A stretch of 9,520 nucleotides of DNA from a virus (Duplodnaviria; Heunggongvirae; Uroviricota; Caudoviricetes). Position numbers and translations under genes: made by a program. Numbering within the stretch: position 1 is the stretch's first letter; every line of letters starts with the position of its first letter. The stretch lies in IMG/VR virus record IMGVR_UViG_2711768020_000003. One strand, written 5' to 3'. Shown one piece after another: positions 1 through 9,520 of the stretch. A model generated the notes under the pieces. The model was not told where the DNA came from and searched no databases. It saw only the letters and a program-made list of their open reading frames with translations.

Positions 1-171
1 ATCTACGGCAGCAAGCCAGTAATGGGTTAAGTGATAACAGGTGTCTGGAAATATAGGGGCAAATCCAGCGTTCATCAGCCCCCGCATTGCCGACAGGATC
101 ACAGACGGGGGGCGCAACTGGTTGTCGTTCAACTGGCCCAGCTACCGTTCTTGTATCAGAGGTGTGGCTGC

Positions 172-1563
172 ATGACAACACCAGTCTGGCGTAATGATGA
201 CCTGGAAGGCGCTGTCATTGGCGCATTCTTTCTGCGTGGGGCAGATCATGAAGTGATGGATATTCTGATCACACTACCGGCGGACATTTTTTCTGTACGA
301 GCGTATCGGGATATCTACACAGGCATCTGCAGACAGGCCCGTGTTTCAGGAGTGATTGACCCCGTGCTGTTGTGTAATGAGATGCCGGAACTTGCCCCGG
401 TGATTACTGATACCGGGCGTAAAACCTGGGTGAAGTCTTCACTGGAGCACTATGTTGCAGCGTTGCGGCGCAATGCCGCACTGCGCGATGCAGAAAAAAC
501 ACTGAATGAGGCGCTGCAGAAATTACGTGATGCGCATACCTGTGAAGCAGCTGAAGATGCCCTGAAGGATGCGCAGAACATGATGGTCACACTGTCGACA
601 GGAAAGGGCGTCATTCAGCCGGTACATATTGATGATGTGCTTCCGGAAGTGGTTGAGCGTGTTGAATGCCGGAATCAGGGGCTGGAGAAATCCAGGACGT
701 TGATGACCGGTATTGATGAACTGGACGCAAAAACAGGCGGTATGGAGCCCGGAGACCTGGTATTCATTGCCGCCCGTCCTTCGATGGGGAAAACCGAACT
801 TGCGCTGGACATCATCGACAAGGTGACTGAGCAGGGGCATGGTGTGCTTCTGTTCACCATGGAGATGGCGAACATCCAGATTGGTGAACGTATGGTGTCT
901 GCGGCTGGAGGGATGCCAGTATCACGCCTGAAATCTGTGGCTCACTTTGAAGATGAAGACTGGGCGCGTTTCTCACAAGGGGTGGGGCGGATGACCGGGC
1001 GCAATATCTGGATGGTGGACCAGGCGAACCTGACCATTGATGAGATATGCGCAACAACGAAACACCATCTGATTAAACATCCGGAAACGGCGCTGGTGGT
1101 GGTTGATTATCTCGGGCTGATAAAAACCCGAACCACGGGGCGTCATGACCTTGCCGTGGGTGAAATCTCAAAGGGGCTTAAAGGCCTGGCAAAATCCGGT
1201 GGTTTTCCGTTGATTGCGCTGAGCCAGCTCTCCCGCGGTGTGGAGTCCAGACCCAATAAACGTCCCATGAACTCAGACCTGAAAAATTCCGGAGAAATAG
1301 AGGCGGATGCAGACATCATTCTGATGCTTTACAGGGATGAAGTGTACAACCCGGATACACAGGCTACAGGCATAGCAGAAATTAATATCACGAAACAACG
1401 TAACGGTTCTCTGGGGACGATTTACCGGCGTTTTTATAACGGACATTTTCTGCCTGTGGACCAGGAAAGCGCACAGGTTCTTTCCACCCCAATGCGGCAG
1501 CCCCAGCCGCGCAGATACAGCAATACACGTACCGACAGCAGTAAGATGGAGCGTTTCTTTTGA
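172..1563 (+). CDS. Replicative DNA helicase, DnaB-like (lambdoid phage replication protein, P22 gp12-like)
   Basis: Long ORF with Walker A motif AARPSMGKTELALD and the DnaB C-terminal block LIALSQLSRGVESRPNKRPMNSDLKNSGEIEADADIILMLYRDEVY. ATG at 172 is preceded by AGAGGTG about 9 nt upstream and gives about 463 aa, typical for DnaB. The ORF track start at 31 is a GTG directly after the upstream gene stop (TAA 28-30) and would add 47 residues that do not resemble a DnaB N-terminus. An upstream gene ends at 30 but is too truncated to identify. Confidence 0.88.
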   Translation: MTTPVWRNDDLEGAVIGAFFLRGADHEVMDILITLPADIFSVRAYRDIYTGICRQARVSGVIDPVLLCNEMPELAPVITDTGRKTWVKSSLEHYVAALRRNAALRDAEKTLNEALQKLRDAHTCEAAEDALKDAQNMMVTLSTGKGVIQPVHIDDVLPEVVERVECRNQGLEKSRTLMTGIDELDAKTGGMEPGDLVFIAARPSMGKTELALDIIDKVTEQGHGVLLFTMEMANIQIGERMVSAAGGMPVSRLKSVAHFEDEDWARFSQGVGRMTGRNIWMVDQANLTIDEICATTKHHLIKHPETALVVVDYLGLIKTRTTGRHDLAVGEISKGLKGLAKSGGFPLIALSQLSRGVESRPNKRPMNSDLKNSGEIEADADIILMLYRDEVYNPDTQATGIAEINITKQRNGSLGTIYRRFYNGHFLPVDQESAQVLSTPMRQPQPRRYSNTRTDSSKMERFF

Positions 1564-1817
1564 ACAACCAGACAATGACTTTTACCTCTGAACAATTGCG
1601 TAAACACGCGCAGGAAATGTTGCGACAGGCGGAACAACTGGAAAAAACAGGTGTAACAAAAGATGCCATTCGTCGGGATATGGTGCCAGCGCTCAGGGAA
1701 CTGATGCAGGCGAAACATCGCGCACAAAAAGCGGTGGATGAGCTCGTTGATTGTGTGGCAGAGCTGGAAACCAAAGTTGGAAAGTTTGAAAAAATGGTGC
1801 AGGAGGTGCTGCGCTGA
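1560..1817 (+). CDS. Hypothetical small protein (about 80 aa, predicted helical/coiled-coil), nin-region-like
   Basis: ORF between helicase and rusA. GGAG at 1548-1551 sits 8 nt upstream of a TTG at 1560; the alternative ATG is at 1575. Its stop TGA (1815-1817) overlaps the rusA ATG (1817), suggesting translational coupling. No family recognised. Confidence 0.5.
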   Translation: MNNQTMTFTSEQLRKHAQEMLRQAEQLEKTGVTKDAIRRDMVPALRELMQAKHRAQKAVDELVDCVAELETKVGKFEKMVQEVLR

Positions 1818-2188
1818 TGCGCCATGAGTTTATTTTACCTTATCCGCCGACGGTGAATACTTACTGGCGACGTCGTGGCAGCACATATTTTGTATCAAAA
1901 GTTGGTGAGCGTTATCGCCGTGATGTGACGCTAATTGTTCGCCAGCAGCGGCTGAAATTAAACCTGTCCGGAAGGCTGGCGATAAAGATTATTGCAGAGC
2001 CACCGGATAAGCGCCGTCGTGACCTGGACAATATCCTGAAAGCACCACTGGATGCGCTGACGCATGCCGGACTACTCATAGACGACGAGCAGTTTGATGA
2101 AATCAATATTGTGCGCGGTCAGCTCGTTCCTGGTGGGCGACTGGGCGTGAAGATTTATGAAATCACAGGTGATAACGATGGCGCGTGA
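1817..2188 (+). CDS. rusA: Holliday-junction resolvase RusA (crossover junction endodeoxyribonuclease)
   Basis: 123-aa ORF with RusA-family hallmarks: N-terminal [15 protein letters not shown], acidic catalytic region RRRDLDN and [14 protein letters not shown], and C-terminal GGRL. Size matches RusA (about 120 aa). GGAGG lies about 10 nt upstream of the ATG. Confidence 0.9.
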
Positions 2189-2564
2189 TATTCAGCAGGT
2201 TATGGAACGGTGGGGGGCTTGGGCTGCAAACACTCATGAAGATGTATCCTGGGCGTCGATCGCTGCTGGTTTTAAAGGGTTAATTCCGTCGAAAGTGAAA
2301 TCACGCCCTCAGTGTTCTGATGATGATGCAATGATAATTTGTGGCTGTATGGCCCGGTTGAACAAGAAAAATCAGGATTTGCACGATTTGCTGGTGGATT
2401 ATTACGTAGGTGGAATGACTTTTATGAGTCTGGCACGGAAACATGGGTGTTCGGATACCTGTATTGGCAAGCGCCTGCAGAAAGCGGAAGGGGTTATTGA
2501 TGGCATGTTGATGATGCTTGATATCCGGCTGGAGATGGACAGATACGTAGAACGAATTATGTAG
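2178..2564 (+). CDS. Late-gene antitermination protein Q (small Q family, QuuD-like as in DLP12-type prophages)
   Basis: ORF containing [18 protein letters not shown]...[24 protein letters not shown]...LLVDYYV...MTFMSLA...[15 protein letters not shown], which I recognise as the small Q antiterminator family. Start taken as ATG 2178 (AGGTGA 6 nt upstream), not the in-frame ATG 2157. It overlaps the rusA 3' end by 11 nt and a candidate late promoter begins 5 nt after its stop, the canonical Q-PR' arrangement. Confidence 0.85.
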
Positions 2565-2568
2565 GTGC

Positions 2569-2598
2569 TTGACCAGACACATTGTCCGGGGCTATATT
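2569..2598 (+). promoter_or_regulatory. Candidate sigma70 late promoter (PR'-like) immediately downstream of Q
   Basis: -35 TTGACC (2569-2574), 17-nt spacer, -10 CTATAT/TATATT (2592-2598). An intrinsic terminator follows about 60-80 nt downstream, mirroring the lambda PR'-qut-tR' layout. Confidence 0.55.
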
Positions 2599-2656
2599 CC
2601 TCACGCGCCAGCAAAATCTGGCGTCGGGATTGGAACCCCGGATAGAGACCGCGACA

Positions 2657-2684
2657 GACACACGCCGCGAGCGTGTTTTTTATT
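2657..2684 (+). terminator. Rho-independent terminator (tR'-like) ending a short leader transcript
   Basis: Stem ACACGC (2660-2665), loop CGCGA, stem GCGTGT (2671-2676), followed by TTTTTTATT. Confidence 0.6.
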
Positions 2685-2809
2685 GTCGTATGCACGCGCA
2701 CATCTGAATTATGGTGGGGCGCATGGGGGAGCTGAAAAGCTCGCCGGTCGGTTTCCCGGTAGTTCCAACCCTGTGCGTCTCACCACCCGATGATTGGAAC
2801 CTGACGGTG

Positions 2810-2838
2810 TTGACAGTTTCAGGTTTGCAGTTTACATT
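2810..2838 (+). promoter_or_regulatory. Second candidate sigma70 promoter upstream of the ORF6N gene
   Basis: -35 TTGACA (2810-2815), 17-nt spacer, -10 TACATT (2833-2838). A weak hairpin plus a run of 7 T (about 2885-2911) follows. Confidence 0.35.
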
Positions 2839-3044
2839 TCCCCGCGGTGCTCAAAACACCTCGAAAGCGGTATCCACACCCGATAGCCATGTGGTTTTTT
2901 TGTGTCCAGAATTCTTGGTTTATGACCGGGTGTGCGGCTAATACAATACCAGCAATGGAAATACGCCCGCCGACTTTCGACGGTTTTGAGCGCCCGGTCA
3001 CCCTCTCAAAAGGGGTAAATCAAAATATTCGAAAGGACATGTCT

Positions 3045-3608
3045 ATGAATCGCACGTCTATTGAAAAACTCCCGTCACTTACGCATAACCATCTTCCTGT
3101 CATGACAACAGAGCTGCTGGCTGATTTGTACGGAACAGAGCGCCAGCGTTTGACAAACAATTTCAATCGAAACAAAGAACGGTTTATAGAAGGTAAACAT
3201 TTTTTCCTGATAGAAGGTGATGCGTTACGAGAGTTGAAGAACGAAAACTCTTTAAGAGTTTCTGTGAAAATTGCCCGTAACGTTCGCTCCCTCATCCTCT
3301 GGACAGAACGTGGCGCAGCCCGTCACGCCAAAATGCTCGAAACCGATCAGGCGTGGGAAGTGTTCGAAAAACTGGAAGACTGTTATTTCAACCAGAAACA
3401 GCCACCAGCGGCACAAAACACATCTATCGAAAATGATGGATGCGCATTACTGAGCCACTTCGATAAACACGGTCAGGTTGAGTTCACGGAAAAGGTACCC
3501 GCCGATGCGATGGTATGTACTCTGGAACGGTTTAAATTTTATCTGGAGCAACACGGGTGGATCGTTGCCCGTAAAGAGCAACTGGTGGAGCGGTTGATGC
3601 GGTTTTAA
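3045..3608 (+). CDS. ORF6N-domain (KilA-N/Bro-N-like) putative DNA-binding protein, antirepressor-like, with uncharacterised C-terminal domain
   Basis: N-terminal region TTELLADLYGTERQRLTNNFNRNKERFIEGKHFFLIEGDALRELK...ARNVRSLILWTERGAARHAKMLETDQAWEVF matches the ORF6N pattern as I recall it. Start preferred at ATG 3045 (AAAGGA about 7 nt upstream); ATG 3039 is the alternative. The long upstream extension in the ORF track (from 2847) is rejected. An intrinsic terminator follows the stop. Confidence 0.75.
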   Translation: MNRTSIEKLPSLTHNHLPVMTTELLADLYGTERQRLTNNFNRNKERFIEGKHFFLIEGDALRELKNENSLRVSVKIARNVRSLILWTERGAARHAKMLETDQAWEVFEKLEDCYFNQKQPPAAQNTSIENDGCALLSHFDKHGQVEFTEKVPADAMVCTLERFKFYLEQHGWIVARKEQLVERLMRF

Positions 3609-3683
3609 AAATTTTTTCCGAAAACTTTACGATCGTAAAAAGTTGAATATCCTGTTAAGAGTGGTTACTACGCCACACAGCTT

Positions 3684-3709
3684 AAACCCGCCGATGAGCG
3701 GGTTTTTTT
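3684..3709 (+). terminator. Rho-independent terminator after the ORF6N gene
   Basis: AAACCCGC (3684-3691), loop CGATGA, GCGGGTTT (3698-3705), then a T run through 3709. Confidence 0.6.
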
Positions 3710-3759
3710 ATACCTGAAAAACGGCACAGGACGTTAAACGTGCTGGTGGTCAGATGAGT

Positions 3760-3788
3760 TTGCAGATGTGATGACATATGGTTATTAT
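3760..3788 (+). promoter_or_regulatory. Candidate sigma70 promoter for the tRNA array
   Basis: -35 TTGCAG (3760-3765), 17-nt spacer, -10 TATTAT (3783-3788); first tRNA starts at 3798. Confidence 0.5.
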
Positions 3789-3797
3789 TCTGCCTCC

Positions 3798-3874
3798 GGC
3801 CCTTTAGCTCAGTTGGTCAGAGCGAGCGACTCATAATCGCCAGGTCGCTGGTTCAAGTCCAGCAAGGGCCACCA
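3798..3874 (+). tRNA. tRNA-Ile (anticodon CAU, lysidine-type, ileX/ileZ-like, decodes AUA)
   Basis: Manual cloverleaf: 7-bp acceptor stem GGCCCTT/AAGGGCC, anticodon loop CTCATAA, T-arm GGTTCAAGTCC, encoded CCA. Anticodon arm and T-arm resemble E. coli tRNA-Ile2 from memory, not elongator tRNA-Met. Confidence 0.8.
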
Positions 3875-3875
3875 A

Positions 3876-3952
3876 CCACCACTAGCTCATCCGGATAGAG
3901 CATCAACCTTCTAAGTTGACGGTGCGAGGTTCGAGTCCTCGGTGGTGGGCCA
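3876..3952 (+). tRNA. tRNA-Arg (anticodon UCU, decodes AGA/AGG)
   Basis: Manual fold: acceptor CCACCAC/GTGGTGG, D-stem GCTC/GAGC, anticodon stem TCAAC/GTTGA with loop CTTCTAA, T-stem CGAGG/CCTCG with loop TTCGAGT, discriminator G, encoded CCA. Confidence 0.82.
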
Positions 3953-3954
3953 GC

Positions 3955-4030
<76 letters not shown>

Positions 4031-4033
4031 TAT

Positions 4034-4108
<75 letters not shown>

Positions 4109-4254
4109 GCGAGATTTGAGACGAAGGTTGTTATTTGCACTGACACAATATTGTGTGGGAATGTCTGACTCCTTACCATCTCCTGTTCTGTGATGTTGTT
4201 TTGTTGCAGTTCCAGTGCTCTTTTTTCAGCACCAGAATGATGAATCATCAGTCC

Positions 4255-4489
4255 NNNNNNNNNNNNNNNNNNNNNNNNNNNNNNNNNNNNNNNNNNNNNN
4301 NNNNNNNNNNNNNNNNNNNNNNNNNNNNNNNNNNNNNNNNNNNNNNNNNNNNNNNNNNNNNNNNNNNNNNNNNNNNNNNNNNNNNNNNNNNNNNNNNNNN
4401 NNNNNNNNNNNNNNNNNNNNNNNNNNNNNNNNNNNNNNNNNNNNNNNNNNNNNNNNNNNNNNNNNNNNNNNNNNNNNNNNNNNNNNNNN
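4255..4489. other. Run of 235 N (assembly gap or masked sequence)
   Basis: Directly visible. Hides the 5' part of the holin gene and its upstream region. Confidence 1.
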
Positions 4490-4591
4490 ATTGGTGTGCT
4501 GGGAAGTCTGCTTCTGGGGCTTCTGACTTATCTGACAAATCTGTATTTCAAAATAAGAGAAGACAAGCGTAAGGCTGCGAGAGGTGAATAA
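4490..4591 (+). CDS. Holin, 3' fragment (phage 21 S21-type pinholin-like); 5' end lies in the N run
   Basis: Frame-2 translation [33 protein letters not shown]-stop matches the C-terminus of the phage 21 class II holin as I recall it. Stop TAA (4589-4591) overlaps the ATG of the next gene (TAATG). Confidence 0.8.
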
Positions 4592-4748
4592 TGTCGCCAT
4601 CATTACGCAAGGCTGTTGCAGCTGCTATTGGTGGTGGGGCTGTTGCTATAGCATCTGTGTTAATCACTGGCCCAGGTGGTAACGATGGTCTGGAAGGTGT
4701 CAGCTACATACCATACAAAGATATCATTGGTGTATGGACTGTATGTCA
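4591..4748 (+). CDS. SAR endolysin (phage 21 R21-like lysozyme), 5' part; 3' part lies in the N run
   Basis: N-terminus [52 protein letters not shown] has a Gly/Ala-rich weakly hydrophobic signal-anchor-release segment followed by the lysozyme catalytic-region start, closely resembling R21. It follows the holin with overlapping stop and start. Confidence 0.85.
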
Positions 4749-5161
4749 NNNNNNNNNNNNNNNNNNNNNNNNNNNNNNNNNNNNNNNNNNNNNNNNNNNN
4801 NNNNNNNNNNNNNNNNNNNNNNNNNNNNNNNNNNNNNNNNNNNNNNNNNNNNNNNNNNNNNNNNNNNNNNNNNNNNNNNNNNNNNNNNNNNNNNNNNNNN
4901 NNNNNNNNNNNNNNNNNNNNNNNNNNNNNNNNNNNNNNNNNNNNNNNNNNNNNNNNNNNNNNNNNNNNNNNNNNNNNNNNNNNNNNNNNNNNNNNNNNNN
5001 NNNNNNNNNNNNNNNNNNNNNNNNNNNNNNNNNNNNNNNNNNNNNNNNNNNNNNNNNNNNNNNNNNNNNNNNNNNNNNNNNNNNNNNNNNNNNNNNNNNN
5101 NNNNNNNNNNNNNNNNNNNNNNNNNNNNNNNNNNNNNNNNNNNNNNNNNNNNNNNNNNNNN
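4749..5161. other. Run of 413 N (assembly gap or masked sequence)
   Basis: Directly visible. Hides the 3' part of the endolysin and the 5' parts of Rz and Rz1. Confidence 1.
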
Positions 5162-5338
5162 GCAGTCTGTCAGTCAGTGCGTGAAGCCACCACCGCCTCC
5201 GGCGTGGATAATGCAACCAGCCCCCGACTGGCAGACACCGCTGAACGGGATTATTTCACCCTCAGAGAGCGGCTGATGACGATGCAGATGCAACTGGAAG
5301 GGGCACAGGAGTATATCCGCACTCAGTGCATTAAGTAG
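5162..5338 (+). CDS. Spanin inner-membrane subunit Rz (i-spanin), 3' fragment
   Basis: C-terminal translation ...ADTAERDYFTLRERLMTMQMQLEGAQEYIRTQCIK-stop resembles the lambda-family Rz C-terminus. The 5' end is in the N run. Confidence 0.8.
   Translation, partial: AVCQSVREATTASGVDNATSPRLADTAERDYFTLRERLMTMQMQLEGAQEYIRTQCIK
5163..5276 (+). CDS. Spanin outer-membrane lipoprotein Rz1 (o-spanin), 3' fragment, embedded in the +1 frame of Rz
   Basis: Translation QSVSQCVKPPPPPAWIMQPAPDWQTPLNGIISPSESG-stop is proline-rich and lies fully inside Rz in another frame, the classic embedded Rz1 architecture. The lipobox region is in the N run. Confidence 0.8.
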   Translation, partial: QSVSQCVKPPPPPAWIMQPAPDWQTPLNGIISPSESG

Positions 5339-5380
5339 CCTTTTTATCGTGGTAAACATTTCGCAGGGTATGAGGTATTT

Positions 5381-5731
5381 ATGCCATCACTAATCCCACG
5401 TGCCTGCCGTAAGCGTGGATGTGCAGGTACAACCACAGACAGTTCGGGTTACTGCGATAAACATCGCGGTGAAGGCTGGGTGCAGCACCAGCGCGGACTG
5501 AGCCGCCACCAGCGTGGCTATGGCTCAAAATGGACGGTGATTCGTGCCCGTATTCTGAAGCGCGATAAAGGTCTGTGTCAGTTGTGTCTGCGTGTCGGTG
5601 TGGTGAGCGAGGCGAAAACCGTCGACCACATCATCCCGAAAGCGCATGGCGGAACAGACGCAGACAGCAACCTGCAGAGTCTGTGCTGGCCCTGCCATAA
5701 AGCGAAAACAGCGCGCGAACGAATCCGGTGA
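5381..5731 (+). CDS. HNH endonuclease (phage packaging-associated HNH)
   Basis: 116-aa ORF with Cys-rich N-terminus (CRKRGC...CDKH) and HNH core DHIIPKAHGGTDADSNLQSLCWPCHKAKT. GAGGT lies about 5 nt upstream of the ATG. Position just upstream of the terminase genes is typical of HK97-like cos phages. Confidence 0.85.
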   Translation: MPSLIPRACRKRGCAGTTTDSSGYCDKHRGEGWVQHQRGLSRHQRGYGSKWTVIRARILKRDKGLCQLCLRVGVVSEAKTVDHIIPKAHGGTDADSNLQSLCWPCHKAKTARERIR

Positions 5732-5753
5732 TAATTATTCTCACTTGTAGGGA

Positions 5754-5813
5754 GGGGCGGGGCAAATCCCTGTGACCTGACGTCTTCCGGACTGCCCGCC
5801 CCATCGTTTTTTT
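5754..5813 (+). terminator. GC-rich long-loop hairpin followed by a T run (terminator-like; lies in the expected cos region)
   Basis: GGGGCGGGGCA (5754-5764) pairs with TGCCCGCCCC (5793-5802) with one bulge, about 28-nt loop, then ATCG and TTTTTTT (5807-5813). The function is uncertain. Confidence 0.3.
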
Positions 5814-5852
5814 ATACCCGCGAAAAATGAAATTTAACCAGGAGTGCCGCAT

Positions 5853-6347
5853 ATGGCTGGAACGGCGGGGCGTTCCGGGCGTCGCCCCAAGCCAACGGCG
5901 CGCAAGGCGCTGGCCGGAAACCCCGGCAAGCGAGCCCTGAACAAAGATGAACCTGTTTTTACGCCCATCAAAGGTGTTGAGCCACCAGAGTGGTTCGCTG
6001 AAGAAGATCTCCCTCTCGCCACGATCATGTGGCAACTGACAACCAAAGAACTCTGCGGTCAGGGCCTGCTGTGCGTGACTGACCTGGCGGTACTTGAGCG
6101 GTGGTGCGTGGCCTATGAGTTCTGGCGACGTGCCGTGAAAAATATTGCCATACAGGGCAACACCATCACCGGTGCAATGGGCGGCAGGGTCAAAAATCCG
6201 GAGCTGACCGCCAAAAAAGAACAGGAGTCCGAGATGAGCAGCACGGGGGCAATGCTCGGACTCGACCCCAGCAGCCGCCAGCGTCTGATTGGCCTGGCGG
6301 GGCAGAAGAAAGCCACTAACCCGTTTCTGAAAATTATCGAATCATGA
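5853..6347 (+). CDS. Terminase small subunit (P27 family)
   Basis: N-terminus [34 protein letters not shown] is the signature of P27-family small terminases. AGGAG (5840-5844) lies 8 nt upstream of ATG 5853. Stop overlaps the large-subunit start (ATGA at 6344-6347). Confidence 0.85.
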
Positions 6348-8077
6348 GCCGGAAATCTTACCCCAACGTAAATGCTGCAAATCAGTATGCCCGGGATGTC
6401 GTGCGCGGAAAGATTGTTGCCTGCCAGTTTGTGATTCAGGCCTGCCAGCGCCATCTTGATGACCTGATGGCGGAAAAAAGTAAGTCGTTTCGTTACCGCT
6501 TCGACAAGGACCTGGCTGAACGGGCCGCGAAATTTATTCAGCTGTTGCCGCACACCAAGGGGGAGTGGGCATTCAAACGGATGCCCATCACGCTGGAGCC
6601 GTGGCAGCTATTTGTGATCTGCTGTGCGTTTGGCTGGGTCAATAAAGGCACCCGGTTGCGCCGCTTCCGGGAGGTGTACACCGAAATCCCCCGTAAGAAC
6701 GGCAAATCAGCAATCTCTGCCGGTGTTGCCCTGTATTGTTTTGCCTGTGATAACGAGTTTGGCGCGGAAGTGTATTCCGGTGCCACGACAGAGAAACAGG
6801 CGTGGGAAGTCTTTCGCCCGGCGCGACTGATGTGTAAACGCACACCCATGCTGACGGAAGCGTTCGGGATTGAGGTTAACGCCTCAAACATGAACCGTCC
6901 GGAGGATGGCGCGCGGTTTGAACCGCTGATCGGCAACCCAGGTGATGGTTCATCACCCCACTGTGCCGTGGTTGATGAATATCACGAGCATGCCACCGAT
7001 GCGCTTTATACCACAATGCTTACCGGGATGGGGGCGCGACGTCAGCCACTGATGTGGGCCATCACCACCGCCGGGTACAACATTGAGGGGCCGTGCTACG
7101 ACAAGCGGCGGGAAGTCATCGAGATGCTCAACGGCTCGGTGCCTAACGATGAACTGTTCGGGATCATCTATACCGTTGATGAAGGTGACGACTGGACCGG
7201 CCCGCAGGTGCTGGAAAAAGCCAATCCAAATATTGGCGTGTCGGTTTATCGCGAATTTTTGTTAAGTCAGCAGCAGCGTGCGAAAAATAACGCCCGTCTG
7301 GCAAACGTCTTTAAAACAAAACACCTCAATATCTGGGTGTCGGCGCGTTCGGCGTATTTCAACTTGGTGAGCTGGCAGAGCTGCGAGGATAAATCACTGA
7401 CCCTTGAGCAGTTCGAGGGGCAGCCGTGCATTCTGGCCTTTGACCTGGCGCGTAAGCTGGATATGAACAGCATGGCGCGACTTTATACCCGCGAGATTGA
7501 CGGTAAAACGCATTACTACAGTGTGGCCCCGCGTTTCTGGGTACCGTATGACACGGTGTACAGCGTCGAGAAAAATGAAGATCGACGGACAGCCGAACGC
7601 TTTCAGAAATGGGTGGAAATGGGCGTTCTGACCGTTACCGATGGTGCGGAGGTGGATTATCGCTACATCCTCGAGGAGGCCAAAGCGGCGAACAAAATCA
7701 GCCCGGTCAGTGAGTCACCCATCGACCCCTTCGGGGCGACCGGGTTGTCACATGACCTTGCTGATGAAGACCTGAATCCCGTCACTATCGTCCAGAACTT
7801 CACCAATATGTCCGATCCGATGAAAGAGCTGGAAGCAGCGATTGAATCGGGACGTTTTCATCATGACGGCAATCCCATCATGACCTGGTGTATCGGCAAC
7901 GTGGTCGGCAAAAACATGCCGGGTAACGATGATGTGGTGAAACCCGTCAAAGAGCAGGCGGAAAACAAAATCGATGGTGCAGTTGCGCTGATTATGGCGG
8001 TTGGCAGAGCCATGCTGTACGAGAAAGAAGACACGCTGTCTGACCACATTGAGTCCTACGGGATCCGCTCGCTTTAA
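6344..8077 (+). CDS. Terminase large subunit (TerL, ATPase/nuclease)
   Basis: 577-aa ORF directly coupled to the small subunit gene. Size, position and an ATPase-like N-terminal region ([13 protein letters not shown]...) fit HK97-type large terminases. Confidence 0.88.
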
Positions 8078-8088
8078 CTGAGGTAATT

Positions 8089-8271
8089 ATGATCATGCTG
8101 ATTCTCGCGCCTCTGGTGGGCGTGCTGGGTGCGCTTTTGCTGGCGTATGGTGCCTGGCTGATTTATCCCCCGGCGGGTTTTGTTGTTGCCGGGGCGCTGT
8201 GCCTGTTCTGGTCGTGGCTGGTGGCGCGATATCTCGACCGTACACGGCAGTCTGTCGGCGGAGGTAAATAG
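8089..8271 (+). CDS. Hypothetical small membrane protein (60 aa, two predicted transmembrane helices)
   Basis: GAGGT (8080-8084) precedes ATG 8089 (second ATG at 8095). Two hydrophobic segments, [23 protein letters not shown] and [19 protein letters not shown]. Stop TAG (8269-8271) overlaps the GTG at 8271 that has a strong ribosome-binding site for the portal reading frame. The ORF is short, so coding status is not certain. Confidence 0.4.
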
Positions 8272-9427
8272 TGTTCTTTTCGGGATTATTTCAACGAAAA
8301 AGCGATGTGCCGGTGACCACGCCAGCAGAACTGCTGATGCTATCGGGCTGTCATACGACACCTATACCGGAAAGCGGATCAGTAGCCAGCGGGCCATGCG
8401 CCTGACGGCGGTCTATTCTTGCGTCAGGGTGCTGGCAGAGTCTGTTGGTATGCTGCCCTGCAGTCTCTACAAAATCAGCGGTACCCTGAAAACACGGGCG
8501 GTGGATGAACGACTGCATAAGTTGGTTTCGGCAAAACCTAATGGCTACATGACACCGCAGGAATTCTGGGAGCTGGTTATTGTCTGCCTGTGTCTACGGG
8601 GGAATTTTTACGCCTACAAGGTAAAGGCACTGGGAGAAGTGGTGGAGCTTCTTCCGATAGATCCGGGCTGTGTGGAACCGAAGCTGAACAGCCAGTGGCA
8701 GCCGGTTTATCAGGTGACGTTTCCGGATGGTTCCGTGGATGTGTTGACCCAGAATGAAATCTGGCATGTGCGCACCCTGACGCTGGATGGACTTGTCGGG
8801 CTGAATCCCATTGCGTATGCGCGTGAGGCCATTTCACTGGCAGCGGCAACCGAGGAGCACGGTGCCAGGTTGTTTAGTAATGGTGCGGTGACATCCGGTG
8901 TGTTGCGTACGGAACAAAAGCTCACGCCGGATGCTTACGAGCGTCTGAAGAAAGATTTTGAGGAGTGTCACACGGGGCTTGGCAATGCTCACCGCCCGAT
9001 GATTCTGGAAATGGGGCTGGACTGGAAGTCGATGGCGCTGAACGCCGAGGACAGTCAGTTCCTGGAAACCCGCAAGTTTCAGCTGGAAGAAATCTGTCGT
9101 CTGTTCCGGGTGCCGTTGCACATGGTGCAGAACACCGATCGCGCCACCTTCAACAATATCGAAGAGCTGGGGCTGGGATTTATCAACTATTCACTGGTGC
9201 CGTATCTGACCCGCATCGAACAGCGGATCAACACCGGACTGGTACGAAAAAGTAAGCAGGGCGTTTATTACGCCAAATTTAACGCCGGGGCGTTACTGCG
9301 CGGGGATATGAAGTCCCGTTTTGAAGCCTACGCCACCGGGATCAACTGGGGAATTTACTCTTCCAATGACTGCCGCGACCTGGAAGATATGAATCCGCGT
9401 CCCGGTGGTGTAATGCCGATCAGTTAA
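8271..9427 (+). CDS. Portal protein, HK97 family; apparent frameshift near the 5' end (main body 8396-9427 in a different frame from the best start at 8271)
   Basis: Body contains the portal-typical N-proximal motif RLTAVYSCVRVLAESVGMLP and is about 340-385 aa, downstream of TerL. The only strong initiation signal is GGAGGT (8260-8265) then GTG 8271 after a 5-nt spacer, but that frame stops at TGA 8403-8405 after 44 codons (MFFSGLFQRKSDVPVTTPAELLML...). The body frame has no ATG before 8396 and only TTG codons at 8180-8188 with no ribosome-binding site. Confidence 0.8.
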
Positions 9428-9459
9428 GGATCAGTTGACCGATCCAGTGGCTGTGTAAG

Positions 9460-9494
9460 AATCCGGAAACGCTCACTTGTTTCCGGATTTTTTT
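9460..9494 (+). terminator. Rho-independent terminator downstream of the portal gene
   Basis: AATCCGGAAAC (9460-9470), loop GCTCACTT, GTTTCCGGATT (9479-9489), T run to 9494. Perfect 11-bp stem. Confidence 0.6.
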
Positions 9495-9520
9495 ATGCAC
9501 ATTGGACAGGCTCTTGATCT

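Follow-up and report, generated by a model that had tools for sequence, protein, structure and literature searches.

The phage 21 lysis cassette and the architecture of the window

In phage 21 (OL657228.1), the holin gene S, the endolysin gene R and the spanin gene Rz are packed closely, with a one-base overlap between the stop of S and the start of R, a 4-nt overlap of R and Rz, and Rz1 placed inside Rz. The cassette is preceded by two tRNAs and followed by bor. Draft assemblies of bacterial genomes are the other point of reference for the present locus: most of the gaps that stay open in scaffolds of bacterial genomes are repeats, read pairs give poor estimates of their size, and misassembly is known to arise at contig edges (PMC3446322).

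The window (the whole stretch of 9,520 nt analysed here) carries a lysis cassette of the phage 21 type that is interrupted by exactly two N runs, at 4255-4489 (235 nt) and 4749-5161 (413 nt), which amount to 648 N altogether and are separated by a readable piece of 259 nt (4490-4748). There are no other ambiguous bases in the window, and the lengths 235 and 413 differ from the fixed sizes conventionally used as placeholders. We consider it highly likely that the two runs mark gaps in a draft scaffold, which most probably comes from Shigella sonnei DNA assembled from short reads, and that their lengths are estimates and not real counts of nucleotides. The cassette of the source strain is very probably intact and an ordinary one of the phage 21 type, judging by genomes that are identical to the window everywhere else.

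All visible parts of the cassette lie on the plus strand. The holin, of the S21 type and the class II pinholin family, is readable from codon 39 to codon 71 (4490-4588) with its stop at 4589-4591, and this part is 100% identical to 4899-5000 of the reference locus L022 (LR213449.1:886683-899033). The R21-type SAR endolysin begins at 4591 and is visible to 4748 (100% identical to L022 5000-5157), with its first 52 codons at 4591-4746. These codons align without gaps to residues 1-52 of R21 and include a Gly/Ala-rich signal-anchor-release segment as well as E35, D44 and T50, which we take to be the catalytic residues of R21. Downstream of the second N run, the last 58 codons and the stop of Rz, the i-spanin, are found at 5162-5338 (100% identical to L022 5782-5958), and the last 37 codons and the stop of Rz1, the o-spanin lipoprotein, at 5163-5276 in the +1 frame of Rz, as part of an open reading frame at 4734-5276. 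An earlier note on this DNA had given the same coordinates and the same counts of 52 endolysin and 58 Rz codons.

The complete genes can be read in L022. Its holin (4785-5000, 71 aa) matches PF04971 with an E-value of 1.5e-35 and has a dual start at Met1 and Met4, the endolysin (5000-5497, 165 aa) matches PF00959 (2.1e-45), and Rz (5494-5958, 154 aa) matches PF03245 (2.8e-52). Rz1 (5714-5896, 60 aa) is embedded in Rz and has a lipobox-like LVVVGC. The locus thus combines a dual-start holin of PF04971, whose N-terminal part is read from L022, a SAR endolysin of the lysozyme family, and Rz with Rz1. Assignment of the cassette to the phage 21 type, made earlier from the visible flanks, agrees with the identities of the relatives' S, R, Rz and Rz1 proteins to those of phage 21 (92, 96, 89 and 92%, respectively). 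Gene order, the one-base S/R overlap, the 4-nt R/Rz overlap and the nesting of Rz1 are all shared with phage 21, and the protein sizes are nearly equal (71, 165, 154 and 60 aa, with an Rz of 153 aa in phage 21).

Three differences from phage 21 were observed. Upstream of the lysis genes there are four tRNA genes and a long non-coding stretch in place of the two tRNAs, and downstream there are P27-family terminase genes and, beside them, a gene for an HNH endonuclease (5381-5731, plus strand, PF01844) in place of bor. The third difference concerns the holin, which begins with MYQM (L022 4785-4796, a position that falls under the first N run) and not with the MKSM of phage 21. In phage 21, Lys2 gives the antiholin its delaying charge. 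Because MYQM replaces MKSM, the longer product of the dual-start holin lacks this Lys2, and the regulation of lysis timing may differ in this widespread MYQM variant.

Distances across the N runs in identical genomes

A BLAST search against complete E. coli genomes gave relatives of only about 96% identity, in which the segment is 235 nt longer than in the window. Using the exact protein sequence of the HNH endonuclease as a search handle in the assembly collection, we recovered chromosomes that carry the same prophage. In three of them, all complete (L018, L022 and L024; CP049179.1, LR213449.1 and CP110398.1, respectively), the sequence is 100% identical to window positions 4-4239, 4490-4748 and 5162-9520, which amounts to 8,854 visible bases aligned, and the three visible pieces keep their order and orientation in continuous finished sequence. 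Four more loci (L015, L017, L020 and L021) are essentially identical to the window, among them L020 (CP022457.1), which differs by one gap (99.98%) and appears in two papers as Shigella sonnei 2015C-3566. The near-identical loci contain no Ns. The chromosomes CP022457.1, LR213449.1, CP049179.1 and CP110398.1 hold the same defective prophage as the window, with the same gene content from DnaB to a portal gene truncated by an IS4-like element, and the only visible mismatch between the window and those that are 100% identical to it lies in the 15 bases at 4240-4254.

These genomes give the real distances. Between the equivalents of window positions 4239 and 4490 there are 662 nt in the relatives versus 250 in the window (15 bases and 235 N), and between those of 4748 and 5162 there are 624 nt versus 413 N; in L022 these stretches occupy 4237-4898 and 5158-5781. 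The second run thus takes the place of 624 nt that hold endolysin codons 53-165, Rz codons 1-96 and Rz1 codons 1-23. On the basis of typical gene sizes, the hidden part had been put at roughly 600 nt and the run judged too short for its genes; the distance measured in genomes identical to the window bears this out, with a shortfall of 211 nt. The first run replaces about 647-648 nt, or 662 nt if counted from 4240, and it is also too short, by 412 nt relative to the relatives, a point that had been missed. It had been described as more than covering the missing part of the holin gene, which holds for the 114 coding nucleotides and fails for the hidden stretch as a whole, whose true length is 647-662 nt.

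The 624-nt spacing is not confined to the near-identical chromosomes. It recurs in six further Escherichia-type loci (L001, L002, L004, L009, L013 and L014), and when spacing was measured directly in 120 IMG/VR loci, 55 of which had both an R21-type left anchor and an Rz right anchor, 52 of these 55 contigs showed 624 nt and the three exceptions 623, 716 and 284 nt. In one IMG/VR contig (L110), a stretch of about 340 nt is missing from the endolysin gene (nt 165-506), so that the start of the endolysin is joined directly to Rz, and another (L055) has a 92-nt insertion at the endolysin-Rz junction. Both are rare natural length variants of a cassette that is otherwise rigidly spaced.

Such variants bear on the question of whether the N runs keep their true length, for instance as a positional mask, over a source strain with a real 412-nt deletion between the tRNAs and the holin and a real 211-nt deletion that takes in the 3' end of the endolysin gene and the 5' end of Rz. 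That some of the 55 contigs vary in length (L110, about 340 nt missing; L055, a 92-nt insertion) speaks for this explanation, as do the decayed state of the prophage, which has an IS element at both ends and a truncated portal gene, and the statement that some stretches in sequence collections are N-masked. We nevertheless regard it as very unlikely. Two deletions would have to have arisen independently, both falling entirely within parts that cannot be read, in DNA that elsewhere shows 100% identity to genomes with the full spacing, and in seven of the eight near-identical genomes the hidden sequence is conserved apart from one-base changes in homopolymer length. An assembler would moreover normally read across a simple deletion junction and leave no Ns, and a pattern search for a natural variant of about 413 nt found no viral contig in which the two anchors are 398-428 nt apart. 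If the explanation were true, the 211-nt deletion would join and inactivate the endolysin and Rz genes, since 211 is not a multiple of 3 and no in-frame product would result, and the two deletions would represent a further step in the decay of an IS-bounded Shigella sonnei prophage remnant.

Size-estimated gaps, the reading that we prefer, correspond to one of the two options offered in the earlier note, namely that the length of the N run is not the real one, and this option is favoured by the full-length, intact cassette in genomes that are 100% identical to the window at 8,854 bases. The other option, truncated or rearranged lysis genes, finds no support.

The hidden stretches in the near-identical genomes differ from one another only in the lengths of homopolymers, by single bases, in seven of eight cases. 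In the hidden intergenic stretch the differences are at L022 4518, 4544 and 4773, each of one base, in runs of C, A and G, and they are probably consensus errors of long-read sequencing. The eighth genome (L016, CP032523.1) has a divergent patch with about 75 differences in the equivalent of L022 5029-5925, from the endolysin gene to the end of Rz, and is identical in the rest. The pattern is suggestive of recombination with a lysis cassette of similar sequence, which is also its simplest reading.

The region upstream of the holin gene

A cluster of four tRNA genes lies at 3798-4108 on the plus strand, with the anticodons CAT, TCT (Arg), TGT (Thr) and TCC (Gly); it is supported by ARAGORN, by Rfam tRNA hits on an identical locus and by the annotation of the relatives. 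The tRNA with the CAT anticodon is called Met by ARAGORN, and the homologous first tRNA is annotated as Ile in the relatives. The cluster, which lies between the Q antiterminator/ORF6N region and the lysis genes, also occurs in several E. coli prophages, some of which exchange anticodons at the same positions of the cluster (Lys for Arg, Val for Gly).

Just downstream of the tRNA cluster the relatives have an imperfect inverted repeat with arms of 31 nt (L022 4220-4250 and 4278-4308). The segment L022 4220-4308 is predicted to form a stable RNA hairpin (-42.3 kcal/mol, z = -4.1), which is strand-specific because the mismatches between the arms are mostly G·U pairs. The left arm is visible in the window at 4223-4254 on the plus strand. 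According to the relatives, the first N run covers the loop and the right arm of this hairpin, about 480 nt of non-coding DNA and holin codons 1-38 (114 nt). Several terminator-like hairpins are present in the hidden non-coding DNA of L022, and a search of the hidden intergenic region of an identical genome with Rfam gave only the four upstream tRNAs above threshold.

The edge of the first N run is unusual. Alignment to the identical genomes ends at 4239, and the last 15 visible bases (4240-4254) read ATGAATCATCAGTCC, where the relatives have GTGCATTGTCGGTCA. The window's sequence ATGAATCATCAGTCC is the exact reverse complement of the relatives' right arm, and the window's left arm therefore complements the right arm perfectly. 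This version of 4240-4254 was found in 0 of 5,426 complete E. coli genomes, and a 45-mer at the edge of the run had 0 matches in viral contigs. The 15 bases reflect either an error at a contig edge or a hairpin interior that has been inverted, and the length stays the same in both cases.

These bases are relevant to a further explanation, in which the N runs hide larger or rearranged DNA, such as an IS insertion or an inversion in the lysis cassette, and the N lengths would again be meaningless. Inverting the interior of the hairpin would yield the bases seen at 4240-4254, and one related locus (L019) has transposase genes of the IS66 and IS3 families between its holin and Rz genes. Such an inversion would leave the length unchanged, however, and the visible pieces follow one another in the order and orientation of uninterrupted genomes, to which they are 100% identical. 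With an insertion of at least 1.3 kb, pairs from short inserts would also be unlikely to bridge the gap. Hidden rearrangement is accordingly a most unlikely account of the two runs.

Repeated modules and the probable origin of the N runs

Estimated gaps in a short-read scaffold account for the N runs as follows. Contigs would have broken inside the lysis region, which is probably built of modules that recur in several prophages of the same genome, and the resulting pieces (1-4254, 4490-4748 and 5162-9520) would have been joined, presumably through read-pair links, with N runs of estimated size. Both estimates would have been too small, 235 versus about 647 nt and 413 versus 624 nt, and the real DNA at these places would encode an intact dual-start S21-like holin, an R21-like SAR endolysin, Rz and the embedded Rz1. 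We infer that the source strain shares the hidden sequence with the identical genomes, that repeats broke the contigs and that read-pair scaffolding set the N lengths.

The hidden segment from R to Rz is multi-copy in E. coli, taken here as a proxy for S. sonnei. Members of its family occur in 5,138 of the 5,426 complete genomes, at a median of 2 and at up to 10 places per genome, and at 4-7 places in the closest relatives. In E. coli records that have the full upstream hidden segment, 3-5 places show a match to some or all of it. A simple de Bruijn model of contig breaks predicts that the edges of the N runs fall where exact repeats common to paralogous types of cassette end. The right edge of the 259-nt piece lies 2 nt beyond the last SNP that distinguishes this piece from the cassette type of L001 and L004, and the other three edges did not coincide with repeat boundaries in the paralogues examined. 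Because only one edge out of four fits a repeat boundary, repeat collapse is proposed here as a cause of the breaks rather than as an observed one.

The flanks of both runs are collinear with finished genomes, and the N lengths disagree with the true distances. Further resemblances to size-estimated gaps in short-read scaffolds are the irregular N lengths, the ends in IS repeats, the position over modules that are multi-copy in E. coli and the odd bases at a contig edge, and from this combination we infer that the window belongs to this class. Naive estimators reportedly underestimate gaps whose size nears that of the insert (Sahlin et al. are said to have described this in 2012), and such a tendency would fit the fact that both runs are too short. 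A mask applied at the level of a dataset that alters length would look the same as scaffold gaps.

Systematic masking of this gene family was also considered and rejected, as the region is free of N runs in the homologous cassettes of L006-L014 and of the 120 IMG/VR loci. A conserved 26-mer matched nine loci in the genome collection, all of them N-free and none of them the source record, and an exact look-up of the open reading frame 4591-5184, whose translation includes X, gave no entry.

The cause of the shortfall is thus very probably technical, with nothing biologically odd about it. Its meaning is one of quality control: truncation of a gene cannot be inferred from length arithmetic across N runs in draft scaffolds. 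The underlying cassette is already well known and looks intact in finished genomes, and no open question is touched by it.

The two N runs add up to 648 nt (235 + 413), which is how long the first hidden stretch really is in most of the reference genomes; put in an equivalent form, the total shortfall of 623-624 nt is the true length of the second. We found no mechanism for this match and treat it as a coincidence.

Prophage context and ends of the window

The window covers a defective lambdoid prophage that is flanked by two IS elements and has a truncated portal gene. Positions 1-68 are the end of an IS3-family element, with a 91% match to an inverted IS copy at L022 11151-11218, and in the identical genomes an open reading frame for an rve transposase reaches the position of the left end. 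At the other side, homology of the portal gene to L019 and L023 stops at 9408, and an IS4-like element that truncates the gene starts at 9409 and occupies the remaining 112 nt or so (9409-9520). The open reading frame of its IS4-family transposase begins at L022 10115, which corresponds to window position 9495, and L001 has an annotated ISEc60 at the same place. IS elements are where contigs from short-read assemblies of IS-rich Shigella genomes stop. Because both of its ends lie about 70-110 nt inside IS elements, the window looks like a whole short-read scaffold.

In three of the near-identical loci (L015, L017 and L021), the match to the window begins only at position 401 and the DnaB helicase has 387 aa versus 463, which suggests that the left boundary of the prophage differs in these genomes and lies near window position 400.
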